DNA of 64,000 bases from Heterodontus francisci. Taxonomy: Eukaryota. Positions 1,500 to 36,911 of this stretch are shown one piece after another. Under the pieces are notes generated by a model that saw only the letters and a list, made by a program, of their open reading frames with translations, searched no databases and was not told the DNA's origin. Position 1 is the stretch's first letter; the number at the start of each line of letters is the position of its first letter. The translations under genes and the position numbers were made by a program. The DNA lies in contig NC_090399.1 of assembly GCF_036365525.1 (NCBI RefSeq), positions 32,210,430 through 32,274,429 on the forward strand, given 5' to 3'.

Positions 1500-2716
1500 G
1501 GTTGGTACTTTTGGGTTCATGCCCTGATGTGTCTCAGTGTGGAGTTGGTGTTTTTGGTTTCATGTCCTGATGTCTCTCTCTGTGTGTGGGGTTGGTGTTT
1601 TGGGGTTCATGCCCTGATGTCTCTCAGTGTGAGGTTGGTGTTTTGGGGTTCATGCCCTGATGTCTGTCTGTCTGTCTCCCTCTGTGTGGGGTTGGTGTTT
1701 TTGGTTTCATGCCCAGATGTCTCTCAGTGTGAGGTTGGTGTTTTGGGGTTCATGCCCTGATGTCTGTCTGTCTCTCTCCCTCTGTGTGGGGTTGGTGTTT
1801 TTGGTTTCATGCCCTGATGTCTCTCAGTGTGGGGTTGGTGTTTTTGGTTTCATGCCCTGGTGTCTCTCAGTGTGGGGTTGGTGTTTTGGGGCTCATGCCC
1901 TGATGTCTGTCTGTCTGTCTCTCTCCCTCTGTGTGGGGTTGGTGTTTTGGGGTTCATGCCCTGATGTCTCCCTCTGTGTGGGGTTGGTGTTTTGGGTTTC
2001 ATGCCCTGATGTCTCTCAGTGTGAGGTTGGTGTTTTGGGTTTCATGCCCTGATGTCTCTCTCTGTGTGTGGGGTTGGTGTTTTGGGGTTCATGCCCTGAT
2101 GTCTCTCAGTGTGAGGTTGGTGTTTTGGCGTTCATGCCCTGATGTCTGTCTGTCTGTCTCCCTCTGTGTGGGGTTGGAGTTTTTGGTTTCATGCCCTGAT
2201 GTCTCCCTCTGTGTGGGGTTGGTGTTTTTGGTTTCATGCCCTGATGTCTCTCAGTGTGAGGTTGGTGTTTTGGGTTTCATGCCCTGATGTCTCTCTCTGT
2301 GTGTGGGGTTGGTGTTTTGGGGTTCATGCCCTGATGTCTCTCAGTGTGAGGTTGGTGTTTTGGCGTTCATGCCCTGATGTCTGTCTGTCTGTCTCCCTCT
2401 GTGTGGGGTTGGAGTTTTTGGTTTCATGCCCTGATGTCTCCCTCTGTGTGGGGTTGGTGTTTTTGGTTTCATGCCCAGATGTCTCTCAGTGTGGGGTTGG
2501 TGTTTTGGGGTTCATGCCCTGATGTCTCCCTCTGTGTGAGGTTGGTGTTTTGGGGTTCATGCCCTGATGTCTCCCTCTGTGTGGGGTTGGTGTTTTTGGT
2601 TTCATGCCCAGATGTCTCTCAGTGTGGGGTTGGTGTTTTTGGTTTCATGCCCAGTTGTCTCTCTGTGTGGGGTTGGTGTTTTGGGGTTCATGCCTTGATG
2701 TCTCTGTCTCTGTGTT
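1500..2716 (+). repeat. Minisatellite, 43-55 bp unit GTTGGTGTTTTGGGGTTCATGCCCTGATGTCTCTCAGTGTGAG, with a 235-bp higher-order period in part
   Basis: About 25 tandem units running into the exon 2 acceptor. Near-identical ORF ends recur at 2052, 2287 and 2522. Confidence 0.95.
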
Positions 2717-2720
2717 TCAG

Positions 2721-2981
2721 GCTCTCACTCTCTCCGGTATTTCCTCACTGCCATGACTCCGATTCCCGGTTTCCCGGAGTTTGTGGCTGTTGGTTATGTG
2801 GACGATGTGCAGTTTGGTATGTACGACAGCGATCGAAAAGAGCTGATTCCCCGGGAGCAGTGGATGTTGGAGAGTGAGGGGCCAGAGGCCTGGGCACGGA
2901 AGAAAGAGCTCGCGATGGGACGGGAGCTAAATTTCAAAGCATATATTCCAATCCTCATGTCCCGATCCAACCAGTCAGGCG
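2721..2981 (+). CDS. MHC class I exon 2, alpha1 domain
   Basis: tttcag|GC...G|gtgagt, 261 nt. Translates GSHSLRYFLTAMTPIPGFPEFVAVGYVDDVQFGMYDSD...EGPEAW...LMSRSNQSG, with the N86 NQS sequon. Confidence 0.96.
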
Positions 2982-5900
2982 GTGAGTCCTCACCCTCCCA
3001 TCACACAGCCTCCTTCTATGGGTTGAGGGATTTGGGAGAGAATGGGTTGAAGCCAGGAGTTGAGCGGGTTTTGGGAGCCAGGATCTCCGAGAATAGTGGC
3101 TCTATCTCCCAGTGTAGAGGCAGCAGCCAATAGGGAGGGGCCTTACATCAGTTTTTGATGGATTTTCTTTTCCAAAAATATACTTTATTCATAAAAATTT
3201 GCAAAAATATAAGTAACCAAACAGTTCAAATTTGACATTTCGAAAAGTATAACAGAGATCAGATTCCTTCGATACAGAATGAGTTGCCTCACAACTCTTG
3301 CCATTCCATTTCATATGCAATGTACATTTGCATTACACAGAAAAAAACATTTTCTGGTGCATACAACTTGAGGGGTTTTACACAGGTTCCAGCCCCTCGG
3401 TTCACTATGACGGGAGGGCCTAACACAGTGACCTTTCCCCATTGAGCCTTTGTGGCGGCTGCCCCAAGTTTTAGTGCGTCCCTCAGCATGTAGTCCTGGA
3501 CCTTGGAATGTGCCAGTCTACAACACTCGATCGTAGACAGCTTTTTGCACTGGAAGACCAGCAAGTTTCAGGCAGACCAAAGTGCGTCTTTTATTGAATT
3601 GATTGGCCTCCAGCAGCAGTTGATGTTTATCTCGGTGTGCGTCCCTGGGACCAGACTGTTGAGCACTGACTCCTGTGTTAGAGAGCTGCTTGGGATGACC
3701 CTCGACTGTTCTTGAAGGATTTAACCGAAGGCTGGGAAGTGCTGGGTCCTTCAAATACACAGATTAGGTTCCAGGGCTTCTTTAAATACTGTCGGTTCCC
3801 CAGGAGATGTATGACAGGCAGTGTGGGCGGGGTCTCCCAGTGGGACCAGGTCTGATTGGCTGTGAGCTGGGGGATGCTGAGTGGGTTCTCCCATTGTCAG
3901 TGCGTCTGGCTACGTGAGATGGTGGGCGGGGTCTTGCAGTGGGACTGGGTCTGATTGGCTGCATGAGATGGTGGGTGGGGTCTCCCAATGGGACTGGGTC
4001 TGATTGGCTGTGTGGTAAGCAGGATCTCCCAGTGGGATCATCTTTGATTGGCTGTGTGTGTCTGATTGACAGGGATCCACACGTACCAGATGCTGATCGG
4101 CTGTGACTTGCGGGACGATGGGACCAGGACTGGGTTTGTCCAGAGGGGATGGGACGGACGAGACTTCATGAGCTTTGACAGGGATCACAAGGTGTGGGTG
4201 ACACCGGTTCCATGGGCGGAGAGCATCCAAAACAGGTGGAACGAGGACAAAGTTGACAACCTGCGGTGTGAACATTACTTGGAGGAGGAGTGTATTGAGT
4301 GGCTGAGGAAATTCCTGCAGTACGGAGAGCCAGAACTGAGAGTCGGTAAGTGCGGGGGGGAGAGACTGAGGCTGATTAAGGGCCTTCGCCACCATGGGTA
4401 TTTTACCCTTAGCTGGCGGGTGTTTGAGGCCTCACATAACCTGCTTTGTGAAAGCAGGTGGCCTCTTGCAGGCTGGTGGGGGCCCCACGGAGGGCCACCC
4501 CCGAAGCCACAACCGCCCATAATGCACAACACTCCTCCCGCCCTCCTAACTGGTGCCTCCCTTGCCTTGCCAGAGCCCGGCTGATTGTCCGTGGCAAGAC
4601 CCTAAAGACGTAACTGCTTTCCGGTGCTGACCTTCCGCTTTCAGCTATTGGCTGGAGGCAGTCCCAGCACTGGTCACCACTCCTGGTGGCACTGCAGGGC
4701 CGGGGAGCAGCTGGCTCGCTGATTGGCTAGCAGCTCCATTAGGCGGGACTTATTGCCTCAAGGAGGTGGAAGTCCCGCCCAACACCAATTAAAGGCCTGG
4801 CTCCCCAGGCTCGGCAGAGGCGGGCTCACTACCGAACCTTCGGCCGGTGGAAGGGGTCTCCCGCCCAATGAAAAATTCCAGCCTGAGAGTCAGTGAGTGG
4901 ACTGCGAGTTGGTGAATAGGGGGGTCCAGGACACAGTACCTCGAGCTTCCTGTACTGATTCCTCTCTCTCTCTCTCTCACACAGTCACTCCCGTCGTGTC
5001 ATTTACCCGTCCGGGTGATTCTAACCGTCTGTCCTGTGTCGTCACTGGGTTTTACCCACAAGCCATCGAGGTGACTCTGTGGAGAGATGGAGTGATGATC
5101 GATGAGATCCTGTCCTCTGGGATTTTACCCAATCACGACAGAACCTACCAGGTCTGGAAATGGATAGAGTTTGATCCGGAAGACCAGGCTGAGTATTCCT
5201 GCCGGGTGGAGCACAGTGGGCTGACGGAGACAATGGTGGTGATTTACGGTAAGATTGTCTCTCACTGTCAGAGGGGACTCAGCCTCGGAGCAGGAGCACA
5301 GGAGGGAGGGTCAGTGCTGAGCTACCAGCCCGGGACAGGCTGAGGCCCAGGATACAGAGAGGGAAATTAATATTAACTTTCAATGTGTCAAAATCCTCAC
5401 ACCATTTATAGAGAACTGTAATCGAGAGGACATTACAGTAATACAGTAATACAGGGCCTGGATATCTCTGAATCTCCCTCCCTCCCTCTCTCTCTGATCC
5501 TCCCTCTCTCTGAATCTCCCTCCCTCTATCTCTGTGATTCTCCCTCCCTCCCTCTCTCTGTGATTCTCCCCCCCCCCCCCTCTCTGTGATTCTCCCTCCC
5601 TCTCTCTGTGATTCTCCCCCCCCCCTCTCTGTGATTCTCCCCCCCCCCCTCTCTGTGATTCTCCCCCCCCCCCCCCGTCTGTGATTCTCCCTGTCTCTCT
5701 CTGTGATTCTCGCTCCATCGCTTTGATCTCCCCTCCCTCTCTCTGATCCTCCCTCCCTCCCTCTCTCTGATCCTCCCTCCCTCCCTCTCTCTGATCCTCC
5801 CTCCATCTTGCTCTCTGATTCTTTCTCCCTCCCTCCCTCCCTCCCTCCCTCTCTCTGATCTCCCTCCCTTCCTCTCTCTGATCTTCCCTCCCCCTCTCTC

Positions 5901-8900
5901 TCTCTGATTCTCCCTTCCTCTCTCGGATCCTCCCTCCATTTCTCTCTCGGATCCTCCCTCCATTTCTCTCTCGGATCCTCCCTCCATTTCTCTCTCGGAT
6001 CCTCCCTCCATTTCTCTCTCGGATCCTCCCTCCATTTCTCTCTCGGATCCTCCCTCCATTTCTCTCTCGGATCCTCCCTCCATTTCTCTCTCGGATCCTC
6101 CCTCCATTTCTCTCTCGGATCCTCCCTCCATTTCTCTCTCGGATCCTCCCTCCATTTCTCTCTCGGATCCTCCCTCCATTTCTCTCTCGGATCCTCCCTC
6201 CATTTCTCTCTCGGATCCTCCCTCCATTTCTCTCTCGGACCCTCCCTCCCCCTCTCTCTCGGACCCTCCCTCCCCCTCTCTCTCGGACCCTCCCTCCCCC
6301 TCTCTCTCTGACCCTCCCACTGACCCTTCCTCCCTCTCTCTCATTTTCCCTCCCTCCCTCTCTCTGTCTCTCTAATCCTCCCTTCCTCCTCTGATCTCAT
6401 TATTTTTCTCTCTCATTCATTCTCTCTCATTCTCCTCCTCTCACTGTCATTCTCCTGCTCTCTCTCTCATTGTCCCCGTCTCGATCTCGTTCTCTCTCTC
6501 TCTCTTGCTCTCATCCTTTCACTCTCTCGCTTTCATTCTCTCGCTCTCTCGCTCTCATTCTCTCACTTGCTCTTGCTCTCATTCTCTCTCTCGCTCTCAT
6601 TCTCGTTCGTTCCCTCCCCCCCCTCGTTCCCTCCCCCCGATTCTCCCCCTCATTCCCTCGCCCCCTGATTCTCCCCCTCATTCCCTCGCCCCCTGATTCT
6701 CCCTCTCGTTCCCTGATTCTCCCTCTCGTTCCCTGATTCTCCCTCTCGTTCCCTGATTCTCCCTCTCGTTCCCTGATTCTCCCTCTCGTTCCCTGATTCT
6801 CCCTCGTTCCCTCTCTGATTGGGTTGGGGAGGGTTTAAACTAAAATGGCACGGGGATGGGAACCTTTTAAAGGGGTCAGAGGAGGGGGGATCAAAGACAA
6901 GAACAAAAGACAGTAAGGGGAATAACAAAAGTGATAAGCAGAGAAATCAAGGGCCAGAATCAAACAGGGCCAGAGTGAAAAATAATGGGAAGGGACATGT
7001 AATATCAAAAAAAACAAGCCTCAAGGCTTTGTGCCTTAACGCATGGAGCATTCGCAATAAAGTGGATGAATTAATCGTGCAAATAAATGCAAACGGGTAT
7101 GATTATACCCATTGGCTATGATGGATTGGGAAACGTTACTTAAAGGGATGATGGTGGATAGGCAATGGTAAACATTCAAAGAGTGCATGGATGAACTGCA
7201 ACAATTGTTTATTCCTGTCTGGCACAAAAGTAAAATAGGAAAGGTAGCCAAACCATGGCTTACAAGGGAAATTAGAGATAACATTAGATCCAAGGAAGAG
7301 GCACACAAATTCATCAGAAAAAACAACAGACCTAAGGATTGGAAGCAGTTTAGAATTCAGCAAAGGAGGACCAAGGGATTGATTAAGAAGGGGAAACTAG
7401 AGTACGAGAGGAGCTTGCGGGGAACATAAAAACTGACTAAAAGTTTCTATAGGTATGTGAAGAGAAAAAAAATGAAGACAAATGTAGGTCCCTTACAGTC
7501 AGAAACAGGGGAATTTATTATGGGGGACAAAGAAAGAGCTGACCAGCTAAATGTGTACTTTGATTCTGTCTTCACAAAGGAGGACACAAATATCATACCA
7601 GAACTGTTGAGGAACACAGGGTTTAGTGAGAGAGAGGAACTGAAGGAAATCAGTATTAGTAGAGAAATGGTGTTGGGGAAATTGATGGGATTGAAGGCCG
7701 ATAAATCCCCACGACCTGATAATCTACATCCCAGAGTACTTAAGGAAGTGGCCCTAGAAGATTCTATAGACTCTGGAACAGTTCCGACAGATTGGAGGGT
7801 AGCTAATGTAACCGCACTATTTAAAAACGGAGGTAGAGAGAAAACAGGGAATTATAGACCAGTCAGCCTGACGTCAGTAGTGGGGAAAATTCTAGAGTCC
7901 ATTATCAAAGATTTTATAGCAGAGCACTGAGAGAACAGTGGTAGAATCAAGCAGAGTCAGCATGGATTTATGAAAGGGAAATCATGCTTGACAAATCTAC
8001 TAGAATTCTTCGAGGATGTAACTAGTAGAGTTGATGAGGGGGAGCCAGAGGATGTGGTTTATTTGGACTTTCAGAAGGCTTTCAACAAAGTTCCACATAA
8101 GAGATTAGCATGTAAAATTAAAGCGCATGGAATTGGGGGTAGTGTATTGCGATGGATAGAAAATTGGTTGGCAGGCAGGAAACAAAGAGTAGGAATAAAC
8201 GGGTCTTTTTCTGAATGGCAGGCAGTGACTAGTGGGGTACCGCTGGGATCAGTGCTGGGACCCCAGCTATTCACAATATATATATATATATATATAAATG
8301 ATTTAGATGAGGGAATTAAATGTAATATCTCCAAATTTGCAGATGACACAAAACTGGGTGGGAGGGTGAGTTGTGAGGAGGATGCAGAGAGGCTTCAGGA
8401 TGATTTGGACATGTTGAGTGAGTTGGCAAATGCATGGCAGATGCAGTATAATGTGGATAAATGTGAGGTTATCCACTTTGGTAGCAAAAACAGGAAGGCA
8501 GATTATTATCTGAATGCCTATAAACTGAGAGAGGGGAATATGCAATGAGACCTGGCTGTTCTCGTACACCAATCGCTGAAGGTAAGCAACAGGCGGTAAA
8601 AAAGGCAAATGGTACGTTTGCCTTCATAGCGAGAGGATTCGAGTATAGGAGCAGGGATGTCTTGCTACAATTATACAGGGCCTTGATGAGGCCACACCTG
8701 GAATATTGTGTGCAGTTTTGGTCTCCTTATCTGAGGAAGGATGTTCTTGCTATAGAGGGAGTGCAGCGAAGGTTTACCAGACTGATTCCTGGGATGGTGG
8801 GACTGACGTATGAGGAGAGATTGAGTCGGTTCGGATTATATTCGCTGGAGTTCAGAAGAGTGAGAGGTGATCTCATAGAAACATATATAATTCTAACAGG

Positions 8901-10910
8901 ACTTGACCGGATAGATGAAGGAAGTATGTTCCCGATCGTGGGGGAGTCCAGAACCAGGGGTCATAGTCTAAGGATACGGGGTAAACCTTTCAGGACTGAG
9001 ATGAGGAGAAATTTCTTCACCCAGAGAGTGGTGAGCCTGTGGAATTTGCTACCACAGAAAGCAGTTGAGGCCAAAGCATTGTATATTTTCAAGAAGCAGT
9101 TAGATATAGCTCTTGGGTCTAAAGGAATCAAAGGATATGGGGAGAAAGCGGGAACATGTTACTGAGTTGCATGATCAGCCATGATCATAATGAATGACGG
9201 AGCAGGCTCGAAGGGCTGAATGGCCTAATCCTATTTTCTATGTTTCCCTGATTCACTCCCTCCCTCTCTGATTCTCTCTCTCTCTCTGATTCTCTCTCTC
9301 TCATTCTCTCTCTCCAATAGGACTGAATTCTGGTTCCCAGATCCTTGTTCCTGTCGGGAGTGTACTTGGGATCCTCGGGCTGATCATCGTTCTCACCATT
9401 GTTGGTGTTATCGTCTGCAAGAGGAAAGGTAGGAATTGGAGAGAATATGAACAGGACCTCACTGGGGGAGTGGGGACTGTGGGTCCTAGAGTGGGGAAGG
9501 TCCCAGAGTGTTGGGCAAGGGGGACTGTGAGGCTCAGGATGTAGGGAGTTAGGCCCTGGGTTATGAGGAGGGGCACATATTTGGAATGGAGGGTCTGGGC
9601 TGAGGGCCCAGAGTCCGAGGAGGGGTTTATTTTGGAGCGAAGAAGCTCAGGGTGAGGGCAGGGCCTAGGGTAGTTGGAGGGACCCTGGCGTGATTGGGAG
9701 GGACTCAAGGTGGTGGGTCGGGGCTCAGGCTGAGGACGAGTGGAGCAGGATAGGGGCTCAGGCTGACGATGGGGGACTGGGATTTGGGCTCAGGATGAGG
9801 TGACCGGGATCAAGGCTCAGGGTGGGGAGGAGGGGACCGGGATCGTCGCTCAGGGTGGGGAGGAGGAGACCGGGATCGGGGCTCAGGGTGGGGAGGAGGG
9901 GACCGGGATCGTCGCTCAGGGTGGGGAGGAGGAGACCGGGATCGGGGCTCAGGGTGGGGAGGAGGAGACCGGGATCGGGGCTCAGGTTGGGGACGAGGGG
10001 ACCGGGATCGTTGCTCAGGTTGGGGACGAGGGGACCGGGTATTGGGTTCAGGATGGGGAGGAGGGGGCCGGGATCGTCGCTCAGGTTGGGGACGAGGGAA
10101 CCGGGATCAGTGCTCAGGGTGGGGATGATGGGACTGGGATCGTTGCTCAGGATGGGGACGAGGGAACCGGGATCGGGGCTCAGGATGGGGACGAGGGGAC
10201 CGGGATCGTCGCTCAGGTTGGGGACGAGGAGACTGGGATCGTCGCTCAGGGTGGGGACGAGGGGACTGGGATCAGGGCTCAGGATGGGGACGAGAGGACT
10301 GGGATCGTCGCTCAGGGTGGGGACGAGGGAACCGGGATCGTCGCTCAGGGTGGGGACGAGGGGGCCAAGATCGGGGCTCAGGGTGGAGAGGGAGGCTCAG
10401 TGTGAGGGAGGGTCCTTCTCTTGCTTTGACTCAGAGTTCCCGCCTGTCTCCTCTCTGATTTTCTGTTCTCTTGTCACTCACTGAGTATTCCTTGTTTTTC
10501 AGTGACAGGGAACAGCCGCTACAGTCCTACAAAGAGTAAGCTGACCATTATACATCGTCTGGACCTCTGTGTAACTGTGAATCATTGCTCATTGTGTGTC
10601 TGATACACTCAACAGCTCATTGCTCTGTCTCCCTCCGCCTCTGTCTCTCCATCCCTGTATCTGCAAGTCTCTCTCTATCTGTCTTTGTATCTTGCGTGCT
10701 GGCTCTATCTCTGTCTCTCTCTGTCTGTATGTGCATCTGTTTGTCTGTCTCTGTCCATCTCTCTCTCTCTCTCTCTCCATCTGTCTTTGTATCTTGCTCA
10801 CTGACTCTGTCTCTGTCTCTCTGATAGTGAACAGTTTGTTAATACCTGTCCTTCCATTAACAGTTTCTGATAAAGGGGAATCCTCATCCAGCTCCTCCGC
10901 CAGTGCCTGA
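2721..10910 (+). CDS. MHC class I heavy chain, nonclassical-looking and UAA/UBA-related. Spliced CDS join(2721..2981,4073..4345,4985..5248,9321..9428,10503..10535,10864..10910); leader exon not found
   Basis: All junctions are GT-AG and phase 1. The joined frame is open for about 328 aa of mature chain and ends in TGA at 10908-10910. Domain motifs are given in the exon entries. Confidence 0.95.
3163..3790 (-). mobile_element. Tx1/L1-type LINE 3' end in MHC intron 2
   Basis: C-terminal peptide LVFQ...ECCRLAHSKVQDYMLRDALKLGAAATKAQWGK, then AATAAA and an A-rich end on the - strand near 3165-3190. Confidence 0.7.
3820..4070 (+). repeat. About 5 diverged ~50-bp tandem units GTGGGCGGGGTCTCCCAGTGGGACTGGGTCTGATTGGCTG
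   Basis: Direct repeats visible up to the exon 3 acceptor. Confidence 0.8.
4073..4345 (+). CDS. MHC class I exon 3, alpha2 domain
   Basis: gacag|GG...G|gtaagt, 273 nt. IHTYQMLIGCDL...WDGRDFMSFD...RW...HYLEEECIEWLRKFLQYG, with the C101/C164 pair. Confidence 0.96.
4395..4882. mobile_element. Non-autonomous DNA element (MITE-like), family with GGCTGGA(A)TTTT...AAAATTCCAGCC ends
   Basis: The right end aaaaattccagcc matches the termini of the elements at 41876-42405 and 57750-58579. GC-rich interior. Confidence 0.55.
4985..5248 (+). CDS. MHC class I exon 4, alpha3 Ig C1-set domain
   Basis: cacacag|TC...G|gtaaga, 264 nt. LSCVVTGFYPQAIEVTLWRDG...LPNHDRTYQ...YSCRVEHSGL. Confidence 0.96.
5465..6819 (+). 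repeat. Polypyrimidine compound mini/microsatellite, including about 13 copies of the 24-bp unit GGATCCTCCCTCCATTTCTCTCTC and a 20-bp unit CCCTGATTCTCCCTCTCGTT
   Basis: Tandem units directly visible; almost purely C/T on the + strand. Confidence 0.95.
6820..9246 (+). mobile_element. CR1 LINE, 5'-truncated with the endonuclease internally deleted, in MHC intron 4
   Basis: CLNAWSIRNK, GNYRPVSLTS, YLDFQKAF, GVPLGSVLGP, KFADDTKL, RPHLEYCVQFWSP; ends in a CTATTTTCTATGTTTC tail; contains stops and frameshifts. Confidence 0.95.
9321..9428 (+). CDS. MHC class I exon 5, connecting peptide and transmembrane segment
   Basis: ccaatag|GA...G|gtagga, 108 nt. GLNSGSQILVPVGSVLGILGLIIVLTIVGVIVCKRK: a hydrophobic helix followed by a basic stop-transfer sequence. 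Confidence 0.92.
9770..10395 (+). repeat. G-rich 33-bp minisatellite GACCGGGATCGTCGCTCAGGGTGGGGAGGAGGG, about 18 copies, in MHC intron 5
   Basis: Tandem units; 11-aa periodicity in the ORF track (GTGIVAQGGDE). Confidence 0.95.
10503..10535 (+). CDS. MHC class I exon 6, cytoplasmic Tyr-motif exon
   Basis: tttttcag|TG...A|gtaagc, 33 nt. VTGNSRYSPTK; length and Tyr position are typical of class I exon 6. Confidence 0.88.
10620..10825 (+). repeat. (CT/CTGT)n low-complexity tract with an internal ~100-bp duplication, in MHC intron 6
   Basis: atctgtctttgtatcttgc occurs twice, at about 10677 and 10779. Confidence 0.7.
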
Positions 10911-29863: not shown

Positions 29864-32800
29864 TCAGTTGTTTTGTTTATTCATTAATTGAATAATTGAT
29901 GTAACTGGATATTTCATCGCGATCTTGACCTGCTCTCTGAACTTGGACTGAGTCACCATATAAATAAATGTGTTTGTGCAGCAACTTAAATTCAACAGCA
30001 TAAATACGATTCGTTGAAATATATAAAAAGAATCATCATCGAAGTGATATCCAATGTTAAAGTAATCTAAAACGAATCCCAACCACAGAAGTATGAAGTT
30101 ACCGGATATGGTGAAGAGTAAAATCACAGACTTCCTTCTGCTCTCCATCTCTGGGTCACTGTGATTCTCTCCCTTGCTCTGACCCCTCAGTCCCTTACGG
30201 ACTCGACTGGCCACTAAAATGTGTCTGACTGTCAGAGCGTTGAGCAACAGAATTAAAGCAAATGGGATCAATGGGGTTAAAACTGTATCAAACCTGTCAA
30301 ATCCCACCCATCCGGGCTCAGTGTAATAACTTTGCTTTGTAGAACAGAAAAATGGTACATTGTAGATTATCTTTCCAGGTTCATATTTAAAGTAGAGAGG
30401 GATGTTTTTTGAACAGAGCAGAATGCAAATTGTTGCTAGAACCACAGCCGCAGTTTTCTCGGTGCAATATTTAGTTTTCAGCTTCTGGCAACAAATGGCC
30501 ACAAATCGATCAAAGGTGAAAGTGACGGTGAACCAGACAGAACAGTCTACGGCTGCATCAATCAGGGCATTGTGAACACTACACACAGGGGTGATATCCA
30601 GGAAGCTCACCGGGAAATAGTAATAATTGATCCTGAACAATATGACCTCAGTGATAATGACCAGTAGATCCGCCGTTGCCATGGCCACCAGGTAGCGAGT
30701 GGTGCAGGTGGAGAGGCCGCACTTTCTCCGGGACAGGATCACAATCGCCAGTAAATTAACTGGAAGAGAGAGAAGGGAAAAGAGACTGGAAATTACTGAT
30801 CAAACATTCTCCGTGTCTGACCCAGACAGTAATGGCAGGACTTCAGCGCCAAAAACAGAGGGGGTTGGGTGCAGGTCAGAGGTTAAAATGTAAAAATCTC
30901 AACACCGACCCCAACTGACTTTTGACCCGCCCACTTCCGGGTTTAACGGAGTCGGGAAAGGGGACGGACAGACAACCACTTCCAGGAGGCGGGTTGGTGA
31001 TTTAAATATTTGAATGAGGCTGGAAGTCTCTGATTTAATCTGTTTTACAGGTTTACCTCTGGCCATCGGGTTTCCCCGTTATACCCCACACCACATACAA
31101 AGACACCCGGGATTGGTGAGTGGAACAGTCCCCTCCTTGGGAATCCGATCCCTCCCTCAGGATCGTCCTCCCACCCTGCGATCACATGCCACCTTCCCCA
31201 TGATAGGACACCACCACTGTGTGGGATCGGACTCCACCACCCCCAGGATTGGAACACCTATCCCAGGTTTGAACCTCACGATCCTCAGGATCGGAAACCC
31301 CAGGATAGGACTTCACCCCCTCCCCCGGGATCAGATCGCACACCCCCGGGGAACGGACTCCCCTCATCCTGTGATTGTACCCCACCACTCCCCGGAATAG
31401 CACACCACCACTCCCTGGGATCGGACCCCACCACTCCCGGGGATTGGACCCCAACAGTCCCTTGGATCACCAAGCATCTGACCTCACTGCCCCTGAAATT
31501 CGACCTCACCACCCCTAGATTGTACCTCTGCCCTACGATTGGACTCTCCTCTCTGGATGGGACCCCTGTCTGAGCTCAGACCCCCCTCTCCCAGGATCGG
31601 ACCATCCTCCTAGATCCCCCCCTTGTATCAGACACTCCACCTGCCCACTCCCCCTAACTGGACTGGGATCAAACTCCAGGATTGGAGACGCCTCCCTGGG
31701 GTTGGGGATCAAACACTCCACTTCCTCCTCCCCGGACTGGGACCACGTTCCAGGTTAGGGGGCCCCTCCCCAGGGTTGATGATCAGACACACTCCATCCC
31801 CATCATCACCTATGACCACGTTTCAGGATAGGAGCCGTCTCCCATGGGTTGAGGATCAGACATTCCCCGTCCCCCTCCACTCCTGCAGTTCTAAAACAAT
31901 CATGTAGTTGGAGAAATGTGGGGTAAAGCGGGAGGAAAGAACAAAAGGCAAGGTCTGTGATCGGGTGGAGGGCAGGAGTGATTGCATGATAAAAGGGATG
32001 ATGGTGCAAGGTGAATAGGACAATTAAAGAAACAGAGGATGGGTCCAGAGGGGGTGTAAATGGTTACAGCAGAATAACAGAGGGAGAGGGGAGCATGGAA
32101 AATCTGGCAAAGAGGAGAAGGCTCCAGTGGCCCAGAAAAGTGAGGGAGAATGGTGGGTAGACCCCAGGGGTGTGGACCAGCCTGCCAGCTGTGTACCAAT
32201 AGGGGATCCTCACCCCAAGCACCAGCCCAGACCCCCTCCACTCCCAGTGACTCTGGTGTAGCCATCCTCTATTACCAGCACAGACCATCCCAGAAAGTGG
32301 GAGCAATGGTTATAATCGGAAGTTTTTAAACTCAGTGTCGAGTTCAACAGATAATAAAAAGCCTAATTGAAAAATTCAGTTTAGTTCCTCATTGAACTTC
32401 ACTGGAAGAGTGTAGGAGGTTGGAGATAGAGAGGTCAGAGTGGGAGTGGGATGTAGAATTAAAATGACAAGTGACCAGAAGCTCAGGGTCACACTTTCAG
32501 ACTGAATGGAGGAGTTCAGCAAAGCAATCACTCAATCTGTGTTTGCTCCTCTCCCAATGTCCAGGAGATTCCATCGTGAGCAGCGAATACTGTTAATACA
32601 TTGAAAGAAGTCCAAGTAAATCACTGTTTCACCTGGAAGGAGTGTTTGGGGCCTTGGACAGTGGGAAGGGAGGAGGTAAAAGGGCAGGTGTTACATCTCC
32701 TGTGCTTGCACGGGAAGGTGCCTGGGGAAGAGGAGCTGATGTTGGGGGTGATTGAGGAGTGGGTCAGGGTGTCACAATGAGTGGGGGGAAGGGAGGGGAG

Positions 32801-35800
32801 CAGAATATATGTTTGGTGTTGGACTTATCTGGATGTGACAGAAATGTTGGCTGATGATGTGTTGAATGTGGAGGCTGGTGAGGTGGAAGGTGAGGACAAG
32901 GGGAACCTTATCATGGTTCTGTCAGGGAAGGAAGGAGTGAAGGCAGTAACATGGGAAATGGGATGGAAAAGGTCGAGGACCCTGTTAACCTCAGTGGAGG
33001 GGAAGCCTCGGATGAGGAATAATGAAGACATTTCAGAAGCACTGGTATGGAAGGTAGCATTAGCAGAACAGATGGAACGGAGGTGGAGAAACTGGGAGAA
33101 TGGAACAGAGTCTTTCCAGGAAGCCTGGTGGGAGGAAGTATAACCAAGGTAGCTGTGGGATTCGGTGGGATTATAGTAGATATTGGTGGGCAGCCAATCC
33201 CCTGAAATGGAGGTAGAGAAGTCGAGGAAGGGAAGGGAAGTGTCAGAGACGGACCATGTGAAGACGAGAAAGGGATGGAAATTCGAAGCAAAGTTGATGT
33301 AATTTTCCTGTTCCAGGCAAAAGAAGGAATTGTCACCAGCACAGTCATCAAAGTATCAGAAAAATATGTGAAGGAGGGGAGCTGAGTAGGATTGGAACAA
33401 AGAATGGTCCACGCATCCTACACAAAGGCAGCATAGCTAGGACACATACAGCTCCCATAGAGACAAAATTTGAGTGTGAAATATCCCAGTGTTAACACCA
33501 GAGGTCCACACACCTATACTTTACAACAGGGTCCATGCACATGAGCCTGCGAGGGTTTTCATTCCCCGACCAGAGCCAGTGAGGAAGAGAGGAGTTCCAG
33601 TGGGAATGGTGAGTGAATGAAAAAAAATGAATCAATTCCAAATGGGGCCCTCGGAATGTCCCAGCAGGAGATGGTGCAGGGAAGCTGTGCAAGATCCCAT
33701 CCTCTGTGAGTTTAAGGAGAGCTCGGGTTTACTGGACTTTGGAGCAGAGAGGGGCAGACTGACATGGACAGAAATGTAAATGGAATTCTGCAGCAGAGCC
33801 CCGAGCTCAGAAGGAAGGAAGTTTCGTGTGTGGTGGGATAGTCGGGGCCAGAATGACCCAGTGGATGAGGATTCAGAGCCTGAAGAAGGGAGTGAGATCT
33901 CTGAGGGGAGGAACTAAACTGTGAAATAATAGTGAATAAATTCAATGAAAAAAACTTCAAGATATTTAAGGTAGAAAATGGGGAGATATTTGAGAAAGTA
34001 ATCAGAGAGAGAGAGCAAACTTTTGGTTCAGATAAATTGCATCCACACATACGAAAAAACAAAGGTAGCGATAGCAGAGGCACGATTATCTGCCCATTAA
34101 TAATCATCAGATTAGGGAAAGGTGCCAGGGGACTGACAGACAGTTAATGTGATTTTTGTATTTAAAAGGGGCTTCATGAGATAGATTCCTGTGATGAGAA
34201 GATTGTTGTATGAAGAGAGATTGAGTAGAATGGGCTTATATTCTCTGGGGTTTAGGAAAATGAGAGGTGGTTTCTTTGAAATATACAAGATTATGAGAGG
34301 GATTGACAGGGTAGATGAGGGACTGTTTCCCCCTGGCTGGAGAGTCTAGAATTAGGGTGCAGAGTCTCAGGATAAGGAGTCAGCCATTTCTCACTGAGAT
34401 GAGGAGAAATTTCTTCACTCAGAGGATTGTGAATCTTTGAAATTGTCCACTCCATAGTGCTGTGGATATTCAGTCATTGAGTATATTAAAGACTGAGCTC
34501 AGTAGATTTTGGGAGTCTAAGGGAATCCTGGGATAATTGTTTTGTGTGGGAATGTGGAGTTGAGGTTGTGGATCAGCCGTGATCTTCATAAATTGTGGAG
34601 CAGGTTCGAGGGGCCGAATGGTCTACTCCTGCTCTTAATTCTTATGTTTCATTCTTATGTGATTCATTACAAACAATAAATCTTGGATTGTATTCTGTAA
34701 GTATATTTATTCAATCAGTAAATAAGCAAAAATAGCATTCGGCAAAACAGACTGAGGAGCGGACAGTGATAAACACACTTGACCAGTACAATTAAACTCT
34801 CACAATCTGACAGCATCCTAACAACACCTTCAAATTACATTTGCTCATCAGAATTCTACTGGAAGTTTCATCAGTTCATTCTGAGTAATTATTCACACAC
34901 CGCCACACCCTCTGTCTCTCTCCCATTCCTCCTCCATCTCCTTCTAGTTTTCCTCCTCTGTCTCTTCCTCTGTCATTCCTCTATCTCTCTTCATTGACTC
35001 TTACTTTCTTCATTATTCTTTTCTCACACCATTCATCCAAATATTATGCACCTGCATTCTGTTCATCTGCCCCATGTTCGATAATCCAATTCTCAGAGTC
35101 AGTTTGTTCAATGATAAACAATTCACAGAGGCTATATCATTTCTACAGCTCACACAAATCTCCACCAGTTCATCTACACTGTTCACTTCATCTACAATAC
35201 ATGGAATAAACAGAATCCAATAAATCTTCCAGACATAGCTCACAATAAATGAAATTCCTTCTCCTGGAATTATAAAGTACAATGATAGATGGTGGGATTG
35301 TTAAATTCACAGAACACCAACATCCCTGGCGCAGCTTCTAATCTACAGATAAATAGAAGGACTCATGATTCCAACAGATACAGTGTAAACTAATACAACA
35401 TCACATCAATCCTTTCCATTTTACAATGTTGTCCAGTGATAGTGAATTCAGCCACAGTGAAACAGGGAGGGAGATATGAAAGAGTCAGCAGCAAACTCAG
35501 TTCAGTAACCAGCCATCTGAAGCAGCGTCAGACACACACACAGAATGAAATAATATTTCATAACAGTGATAACCAATAAATATGCTGAAATCCCAGTTAA
35601 ACTGAACCATGTCATTGGGAGGGAGGACATTGAGCTGCCTCCTTATAACACTGAGACTGTGAGCTGTCCCCATTATCCATCACTGAAACCATGTCGATAA
35701 AGATATTCCAGGACAGATTCGTTCCACATTAGCCGGCTAACAAATTCTGATAGTCTTATTCCTGCTCTTTAGTCCAGACACCTGATTCCAATACATTCAG

Positions 35801-36094
35801 TACAGAGAATAATCCAGGAACATTAACAGGGTTGGATAACCGAACATCATTGGAGAAATAATGAAGCTGCTACAAGTCATAAAGAACAGAGACTGAGGAC
35901 ATTCCATCATTCAACTGTTGGAACGAACAGGCAGCTTTGTAAAACATAAAGTGAGAAATAATATCAAGTACAGCAGCATAGTTAACACCATTTTACGCCA
36001 TTACCAGAAGAAATATCGACTTACCAGGAACCCCAACAGCTGCAAGAATTGGATAGTAAATGTCTTCTATCTGATGGATTACTGGATATACCAT
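29864..36094 (-). CDS. Class A GPCR, GPR139/GPR142-like, 321 aa; complement(join(29864..30759,36025..36094))
   Basis: Exon 1 MVYPVIHQIEDIYYPILAAVGVP G|gtaagt splices in frame to ttccag|TT-NLLAIVILSR. Seven TM segments: GVPVN, LVAMATADLL, SVWFTVTFTFDRFVAIC, NIPLYF, PFALILLLN, LLFTISGNFILLW, CCTNTFIY. Confidence 0.93.
30834..31880. repeat. MITE-like element end followed by a C-rich diverged tandem array (CCACCACTCCCCGGGATCGGACC-like) in the GPCR intron
   Basis: Recurrent GGATC...ACCCC units at 31130-31880; ggcaggacttcagcgcc start resembles the other MITE ends. Confidence 0.55.
31905..33470 (-). mobile_element. Penelope-like element, decayed RT thumb/linker and 3' region
   Basis: - strand SLPFLDFS...NIYYNPTESHSYL...FSQFL...MSSLFLIRGFPSTEV. 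Confidence 0.75.
34170..34660 (+). mobile_element. CR1 3' end
   Basis: YEERLSRMGLYSL, EMRRNFFTQRIVNL; tail cttatgtttcattcttatg. Confidence 0.85.
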
Positions 36095-36209
36095 TTCTGT
36101 GAGAAGCACGATTTTTGCTGATCTGGGATCCACCACTCCGGCAGGCACTCTGAGCTGATTCAATGCAATGGGTCCTGACTTATACAGGAGATCCGTCTCC
36201 ACTGACACG

Positions 36210-36215
36210 TTTATA
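36210..36215 (-). promoter_or_regulatory. Candidate TATA box of the GPCR gene
   Basis: TATAAA on the - strand about 116 nt upstream of the ATG at 36094, in non-repetitive sequence. Confidence 0.4.
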
Positions 36216-36911
36216 CCCCTGATCATTGCTAGTAGTTACTCTCACTTGAACAAACACATTTTCTCAGGAGCTTTGACTCTGAGGTAAATAATGTGGTGGA
36301 TAAAACACAAACATTTCAGAGTCCAGTACATTATCTTATTTGGCCCTGTCTCAGGAATAAAGCTGAAATCTCTGCTCATTACAGCACCGATCCCACAATA
36401 ATGAGCAGCTTCATTTCCAGTTTCATATGATTGTATTGACCATATTCACTCCTACTGAATCAATTATAAATGTTACTGATTTCTCCACAGTCTACACTGA
36501 ATCCAGGGACACAAGCAGACCTGTTTCACTCTGTTCCTGCAGTTTCCCAGTTAAAATATGAACTTTTCGTTTCTGACATGGGGATAGTTAAAGGCTATAT
36601 TAGGGATTGCAGCCTATAAATTACTGTGGAGGATATTAGGGGACGGGCATTGAATGTGTCCAATTAACATTCCTGACTCTGCTATTTCACTGCAGATGTT
36701 TATCTGGTTATTCTACATTGGTTAATGGATCCAGTAAAATTAGAACTTGTCACCCCCGACTCCATTTCTCCAGTTCACTCCTGACCATCCACCCAACCTC
36801 CACCTTCCATCAATGTCAACTGATCCAAAACTCTGCTGTCCATATCCAGCCCTCACCAAGTCCCACTCTCCCATCACCCTCACCCTCACCCTCAACGACG
36901 CACATTGGCTT

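Follow-up and report, generated by a model that had tools for sequence, protein, structure and literature searches.

What kind of receptor is encoded by the one GPR139-like gene in a 64,000-nucleotide (nt) stretch of the Heterodontus francisci genome (assembly GCF_036365525.1, contig NC_090399.1, positions 32,210,430 to 32,274,429; here called the window), and what might a family of its size be for? The gene (29864..36094, reverse strand) is the sole family copy within the window and encodes a predicted class A (rhodopsin-like) G protein-coupled receptor (GPCR). It appears to be an intact member of a very large class A family of cartilaginous fishes, and we consider it likely, at a probability of roughly 55%, that this family is a chemosensory, probably olfactory, repertoire. 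The genome pattern behind this reading comprises tandem arrays, a spread over many contigs, broken copies alongside intact ones, a variable pocket above an inner face that is conserved, and an order of upstream elements that is kept across subfamilies.

Family size and intactness

The original prediction pictured a lineage-expanded receptor repertoire, and the genome supports this picture with at least 132 close paralogues on contig C29 and arrays on many other contigs, including C4, C5, C9, C17, C21, C22, C26, C28, C34, C36, C39, and C44. A genome search returned 13,304 candidates; the 132 on C29 are the scored part of these and thus a lower bound. All 132 lie at 32.10–42.25 Mb with at least 80% identity, and 122 are free of stop codons. 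The 70 array copies analyzed reduce to 67 unique sequences that encode 65 different proteins, and subfamilies diverge to about 56% identity. A large clustered family that holds both intact and broken copies is what a chemosensory repertoire is expected to look like, and this is what we observe. One broken copy, L102 (C7:137.76 Mb), is interrupted after extracellular loop (ECL) 2 by reverse-transcriptase-like retroelement sequence and reads on in frame.

A 23-base coding word for F-D-R-F-V-A-I-C (30492..30514, reverse strand) is common across the family and has 3,687 exact matches in the genome; two one-base variants of it have 34 and 395, and all reversed controls have 0. Sixty matches, drawn from the first 100 listed and so not a random sample, were fetched, and every one of them is family exon 2. 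That exon is intact in 46 of the 60 by a strict test and in 48 by a crude one (copy L123 fails solely on the start cut-off). The word is missing from 10 of the 70 array copies and from 21 of 24 copies found with a salamander protein. Constraint at the DNA level that is specific to the word is unsupported, as the difference at third positions is 0.24 there and 0.32 overall. On contig C21, matches span nearly the whole 90 Mb (4.8–89.7 Mb).

We do not take 3,687 as a number of distinct genes because of near-identical scaffold duplicates. Contigs numbered above C51, which measure 0.6–7.7 Mb where lengths are known, hold 27 of the 34 matches of one word variant and ∼70–75% of those of the other. 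Scaffold pairs picked by hand share 99.9% identity across 7 kb, and one set is three-fold. The sets L219/L220, L223/L224, L226/L227/L228, L086/L225, and L229/L230 are 99.2–99.96% identical over 7–10 kb although their members lie on different contigs or megabases apart; such sets are either haplotype duplicates or very recent segmental duplications. Multiplying 4,116 matches by a large-contig share of 21–29% extrapolates to ∼850–1,200 copies on large contigs, an estimate based on two subfamily-biased word variants.

The family extends to other cartilaginous fishes. A database search finds 2,640 proteins at E ≤ 0.001, and the named relatives come from sharks (catsharks and carpet sharks), skate, stingray, and chimaera. 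The nearest protein is 98% identical across 95% of exon 2 and has a machine-given name. Nearly all other matches listed are from sharks and rays and are named "probable GPR139," in keeping with the original prediction that shark annotations hold many such models.

Variation in the predicted ligand pocket

The family varies chiefly in its ligand pocket. In 120 relatives from the database, variability is highest in exon-2 columns that include 2.61, 3.29, 3.32, 3.33, the positions following the ECL2 cysteine, ECL3, 7.35, 7.39, and 7.42. We counted nonsynonymous (pN) and synonymous (pS) change in 33 disjoint pairs from the 67 unique array copies, that is, pairwise and not site by site along a tree. 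At 37 positions that were fixed before counting and that we take to be pocket positions, pN is 0.12–0.13, compared with 0.032–0.033 at other helix positions and 0.023–0.025 on the inner face; the pocket changes 4–5 times faster than the other helix and inside positions. Relative to gene-wide pS, pocket pN is 1.6–2.0 (bootstrap 1.69–2.28 at kappa 3), whereas the ratio of 0.3–0.5 at helix and inner positions corresponds to purifying selection. Positive selection on pocket sites is suggested by these ratios rather than demonstrated. Since the inner face is conserved, a single transducer may serve all copies.

Synonymous divergence in exon 2 of the C29 array (L001–L030 and L159–L198) is patchy, at 0.02–0.04 in several inner-face segments versus 0.11–0.18 in several outer ones. 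Gene conversion between paralogues would be expected to give such a pattern.

Promoter elements

Exon 1 and ∼300 nt upstream of it are 85–88% conserved among the best matches. When copies were chosen by their coding exon, exon 1 was found for 28 of 60 and for 14 of 20, and the upstream regions of the exons found form 10 mutually unalignable groups. Across subfamilies, the best-conserved upstream element is a putative site, TGTTTGTTCA (36247..36256, reverse strand), presumably a forkhead-like box. It is present within one mismatch in 9 of the 10 promoter groups versus 2 of 60 intron windows. Downstream of it on the same strand lie a 19-base word of the window gene's own promoter group (36211..36229), the position at which other subfamilies carry an O/E-like site (36196..36207; degenerate in the window gene), and a TATA-like box (36178..36185) some 90 nt ahead of the start codon. 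In the 60 nt that follow TGTTTGTTCA and precede the TATA-like box, O/E-like and homeodomain plus O/E-like matches beat shuffled sequences, with 0 of 20,000 draws as good; the homeodomain site alone gives a P value of 0.033. Passages of two papers describe odorant-receptor promoters as driven by O/E and homeodomain sites (PMC12547500) and odorant-receptor enhancers as marked by a side-by-side homeodomain and O/E pair (PMC5608512).

The 19-base promoter word has 1,556 exact genome matches (control, 0). We dropped this number as a gene count because C21 carries several first-exon cassettes per coding exon and other subfamilies lack the word. At C21:17.01–17.15 Mb (L066–L079), about nine promoter and exon-1 cassettes stand in tandem on one strand with only two copies of exon 2, four cassettes ahead of one coding exon and five or six ahead of the next. 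The units are ∼90% identical, and several have altered donors. Alternative first exons, amplification of the promoter, or decay could each account for them. Another copy, L083, has two first exons ahead of one coding exon.

Relation to GPR139 and GPR142

The window gene had been judged not to be the GPR139 orthologue, and the genome bears this out. The true GPR139, located by a short pattern from transmembrane helix (TM) 3 that occurs at one site in the genome, lies at C24:51.02 Mb; it has the WAPR motif and is 88% identical to the human protein. A genome search with this protein gives one further match at E ≤ 1e-25, at C26:62.13 Mb. This second protein groups with named GPR142 proteins, which rules out the window gene as the GPR142 orthologue. 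A single-copy gene syntenic with GPR139 or GPR142, the outcome that would have spoken against a new family, is not what we find: the family is large, and GPR139 and GPR142 are on C24 and C26. The window protein has 22–23% identity to GPR139 and 19–23% to GPR139 and GPR142 overall.

The phylogeny that the original prediction called for points the same way. In a tree of 66 rows, representatives that we chose and of which the program dropped none, GPR139 and GPR142 form one clade (100/100) and the window gene falls outside it, in a group of 37 sequences from cartilaginous fishes (89/70). This group is sister to a salamander orphan receptor (100/99 together), and the two join a conserved single-copy orphan of jawed vertebrates and an anchovy protein (99/98).

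The family is true kin of GPR139, because GPR139 is the best match of a family profile among solved structures (E value of 4.6e-15) and its splice acceptor falls at the same codon and in the same phase 1 as that of the window gene, before N1.50. A single-sequence phmmer search had ranked the alpha-1A adrenergic receptor above GPR139, an order that the family profile reverses. By scaffold and intron position, the family belongs to a wider GPR139/142/210 group. Sections of PMC5430874 describe six residues modelled or mutated in the Trp/Phe site of GPR139, namely E3.32, F3.33, H5.42, W6.48, R6.51, and N7.39; the window protein has I90, D91, D181, W249, F252, and F276, and retains only W6.48.

Gene structure and predicted protein

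As originally predicted, the gene is an intact two-exon gene for a receptor of 321 residues. Exon 1 (36094–36025, reverse strand; 70 nt, 23 codons plus 1 nt) holds the start codon, the short N terminus, and the first half of TM1, and is followed by a GTAAGT donor; paralogues have the same exon 1 and donor. A single phase-1 GT..AG intron (30760..36024, reverse strand; 5,265 nt) ends just before the codon ahead of N1.50, and exon 2 (30759–29864, reverse strand; 896 nt) encodes the rest of TM1 through TM7, helix 8, and the stop. The joined frame has no internal stops. Contigs from sequencing runs only guessed to be RNA show no joint between exons 1 and 2. Their coverage extends alike over exon 2, intronic sequence, and the stretch ahead of the TATA-like box, and so is uninformative on transcription; three contigs from one such run start at the donor, a signal too weak for use.

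The class A assignment follows from a 7tm_1 domain (E value of 2.4e-20; the sole Pfam match at E ≤ 0.01) and from a predicted seven-helix fold. The structure model of exon 2 is a helical bundle with an ECL2 hairpin (mean pLDDT confidence of 65), and a fold search with it matches class A receptors, peptide receptors being at the top. Matches are near-equal across class A, so the search does not separate its subgroups.

Exon 2 carries C3.25 (C83), the ECL2 cysteine C162, DRF, W6.48, and NTFIY, and lacks P6.50. Along the protein, we find GVPVN at 21–25, SVWFTVTFTFDR at 97–108, DRF at 107–109, IPLY at 143, RVRKGLR at 209 and RRK at 231 in the basic intracellular loop (ICL) 3, LFTI at 238, FILLWLGF at 245–252, YHFDDDSFY at 261–269 in the acidic and aromatic ECL3, and NTFIY at 286–290. 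The divergent motifs first quoted for this protein are therefore all present. One of the scaffold motifs quoted with them, ILxxLN, has no literal match, and the protein reads ILLLN. The N terminus is short and free of N-glycan sites, also as described, with the only sequons at 222 and 280.

These motif changes were first taken for a rewiring of this particular copy. They are instead characteristic of the family, and some of them predate it. DRF is present in 67/67 array copies and 22/22 diverse representatives, and P6.50 is absent from 67/67 and 20/22. The loss of NPxxY predates the family, since TM7 of both GPR139 and GPR142 reads NFFLY. The short unglycosylated N terminus is common to single-copy relatives in salamander, coelacanth, and catshark. 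The cysteine pair between TM3 and ECL2, which GPR139 lacks, is kept in 67/67 array copies, and the acidic ECL3 belongs to a segment that ranks among the family's most variable.

MHC class I genes near the receptor array

A major histocompatibility complex (MHC) class I gene, whose exons for alpha-1, alpha-2, and alpha-3 are all open, lies in the window at 2699–5343 on the forward strand, tail to tail with the receptor and ∼25 kb from it. We presume that it is non-classical, as by eye it is without some of the classical peptide-anchoring residues, at positions we assume. Genome-wide, 31 of 34 matches to the class I alpha-2 domain are on C29, including several inside or at the edges of the receptor array (32.07, 32.21, 32.76, 32.89, 40.36, and 42.3–42.8 Mb). 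Because of these matches, and because elasmobranch class Ib genes map solely to the MHC (as stated in part of PMC10751288), we infer that C29 is the MHC chromosome. A search for MHC class II genes, as a mark of the MHC core, matched nowhere, and its controls were also blank. A second receptor array, of another subfamily, occupies C29:63.8–73.6 Mb, with scattered copies at C29:46.6–49.5 Mb, so receptor arrays flank and interleave with the class I genes on both sides. The link between receptor and class I genes is one of neighborhood only.

Simple and tandem repeats near the class I gene (1600–2700, 5300–6750, and 9760–10480) give rise to long spurious open frames, and many reverse-transcriptase-like fragments are spread over the window.

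Discussion

If the family is chemosensory, the copies would differ in the water-borne small molecules or peptides that they bind in the usual pocket between TM2, 3, 5, 6, and 7 and ECL2; a peptide ligand fits as well as a small molecule. One G protein would serve all copies in signaling, given how little ICL2, the end of ICL3, and helix 8 vary. Within the olfactory neurons of sharks, the output would be the Go/TRPC2 pathway, and a passage of PMC10116579 describes almost all catshark olfactory neurons as positive for Go and TRPC2. The promoter that the copies have in common would allow a sensory neuron to choose one or a few of them, as with mammalian odorant receptors. A bolder proposal, to which we give somewhat less than an even chance, is that cartilaginous fishes own an olfactory receptor family that would be the seventh vertebrate chemoreceptor family, with an origin in a GPR139-related orphan, a forkhead and homeodomain–O/E promoter, and possibly one to several thousand copies in H. 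francisci, one array of which stands among MHC class I genes.

Several observations weigh against a chemosensory role. Near-identical duplicates inflate the copy number, and the receptor array sits among MHC class I genes. When pocket pN is divided by the pocket's own pS, the ratio is only 0.99–1.26, because synonymous change is also raised in the pocket, to ∼2.7 times that of inside positions; the same pocket pattern could arise from relaxed constraint or from gene conversion acting on the conserved parts. With respect to the promoter, the homeodomain plus O/E match of the window gene itself has 5 mismatches, the commonest control value and thus chance level. The 10 promoter groups share ancestry and are not independent, the test window was selected after the alignment had been inspected, and the O/E and homeodomain consensus motifs are ones that we take to be correct. 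EBF and forkhead factors also act jointly in B cells. Finally, the shark nose shows robust expression of V2R/OlfC genes (in a section of PMC10116579), and the top-50 list for a catshark brain and olfactory epithelium library, in the portion of PMC11979771 that gives it, is without any GPCR.

The main rival explanation is an immune or barrier-sentinel repertoire, in which the proteins would be lymphocyte, granulocyte, skin, or gut receptors for microbial or parasite peptides, comparable with the expansions of MRGPR or formyl-peptide receptors. Fast change of the pocket suits a host–pathogen race, forkhead and EBF sites presumably suit B cells too, and class I matches are concentrated on C29, with several in or beside the array and one class I gene in the window; elasmobranch class Ib genes are confined to the MHC. 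Most copies, however, are on other contigs, so that linkage to the MHC concerns one array of many, and the class II search that was aimed at the MHC core matched nowhere, as did its controls. Mammalian odorant-receptor clusters, we presume, also adjoin the MHC, and a homeodomain site beside an O/E-like site points to olfactory neurons. We regard the immune explanation as unlikely.

Two further explanations appear less probable again. Repeated segmental duplication in a repeat-rich 6-Gb genome, together with assembly duplicates, could have multiplied the gene by genomic drift with little function gained per copy, as the hand-picked 99.9% identical scaffold pairs, the excess of one word variant on contigs above C51 (27/34), the roughly one-quarter of sampled copies that are broken, and the C21 first-exon cassettes without a coding exon would suggest. 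Drift is quite improbable in the face of purifying selection on helix and inner positions but not on the pocket, of 65 different proteins among 70 array copies, of promoter elements retained between subfamilies at about 56% identity, and of a family found in sharks, rays, skate, and chimaera. The other possibility is sensing of internal nutrients or endogenous peptides by gut, endocrine, or brain cells, an ancestral role of the GPR139/142 type whose ligand range the expansion would have widened. Ancestry and intron position in common with GPR139, a modelled ECL2 hairpin with peptide receptors as best fold matches, and the TM3–ECL2 cysteine pair in 67/67 array copies are consistent with such a role. 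A fixed endogenous ligand, however, needs no hundreds of different pockets, of the six residues modelled in the GPR139 pocket just one is retained, and the fold matches are near-equal across class A with a model of moderate confidence; we consider internal sensing very unlikely.

A chemosensory repertoire therefore remains our preferred reading, and it would bear on the current view of these animals. Passages of PMC10869828 give cartilaginous fishes 20–62 known olfactory receptor (OR) genes, despite many sensory neurons, and give the largest vertebrate OR repertoire, which is mammalian, as 2,399 genes at most. Their keen smell is attributed there and in part of PMC10116579 to sensitivity rather than range, and a genome paper notes a paucity of GPCRs in cartilaginous fishes (in a passage of PMC8455134). 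If the family is sensory, many hundreds to thousands of pocket-variable receptors would overturn the view of cartilaginous fishes as animals with a few dozen receptors, and a true count of one to several thousand would be comparable with the largest odorant repertoires of mammals. Should the family be immune instead, the oldest lineage of jawed vertebrates would have a large recognition system that has gone unrecognized. In both cases, the expanded family in H. francisci is an unstudied receptor family under the machine label "probable GPR139." No published description of it was found in the literature searched, whose coverage leaves out most subscription journals and supplements; a term look-up found GPR139 absent from the main texts of PMC11979771 and PMC10620051, and a GPR139 review does not mention sharks.

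Comparison with known receptor families

The shark family combines features seen separately in other receptors. Like the odorant, TAAR, V1R, V2R, and taste families, it has tandem arrays, intact and broken copies, a variable pocket with a conserved inner face, a short compact gene, and, in several subfamilies, O/E- and homeodomain-like promoter sites. It differs from them in an intron that splits TM1 and in a dominant forkhead-like box; Fox factors go unmentioned in the parts of the odorant-receptor promoter review PMC12547500 that bear on such sites. By sequence, it is not a member of OR, TAAR, V1R, V2R, T1R, or T2R, as 7tm_1 is the only Pfam domain and the nearest kin are of the GPR139 type.

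GPR139 and GPR142, class A orphans activated by L-Trp and L-Phe (PDB entries 7VUG and 9M42), share GxPxN, SxW, IPxY, W6.48, and a TM7 motif without proline, but they have DRY, WAPR, a glycosylated N terminus, and no TM3 cysteine, and they are single copies in this genome. The sister of the shark family, the salamander orphan labelled "probable GPR139" (P0230 from Pleurodeles, P0269 from Ambystoma, and P0272 from Lissotriton), shares the short N terminus, FDR, the TM3 cysteine, and DPEM..RR in ICL3. It differs in having 32% identity, DRY, P6.50, and a long branch, and it forms one cluster of five near-identical proteins, with no expansion in what was examined. The conserved jawed-vertebrate orphan (P0231 from coelacanth, P0300 from catshark, and proteins from sturgeon, teleosts, amphibians, and reptiles) is slow-evolving, at ∼30% identity, with 145 database matches. 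Proteins of this type occur in catshark, coelacanth, ray-finned fishes, amphibians, turtles, and squamates, with no mammal or bird among the named matches listed; most are named GPR139 or GPR142 yet are neither. This orphan may correspond to a GPR210 subtype as named by Rinne et al. 2019 (PMC6504862), the main text of which names GPR210A/B from fishes and coelacanth and does not mention sharks.

The nematode srw receptors, candidate chemoreceptors that belong to the same rhodopsin subgroup, form another expanded family (PMC3963977); Srw-labelled clusters are among the Atlas look-alikes of the shark family, and GPR139 proteins carry PF10324. The srw genes represent an independent expansion in another phylum.

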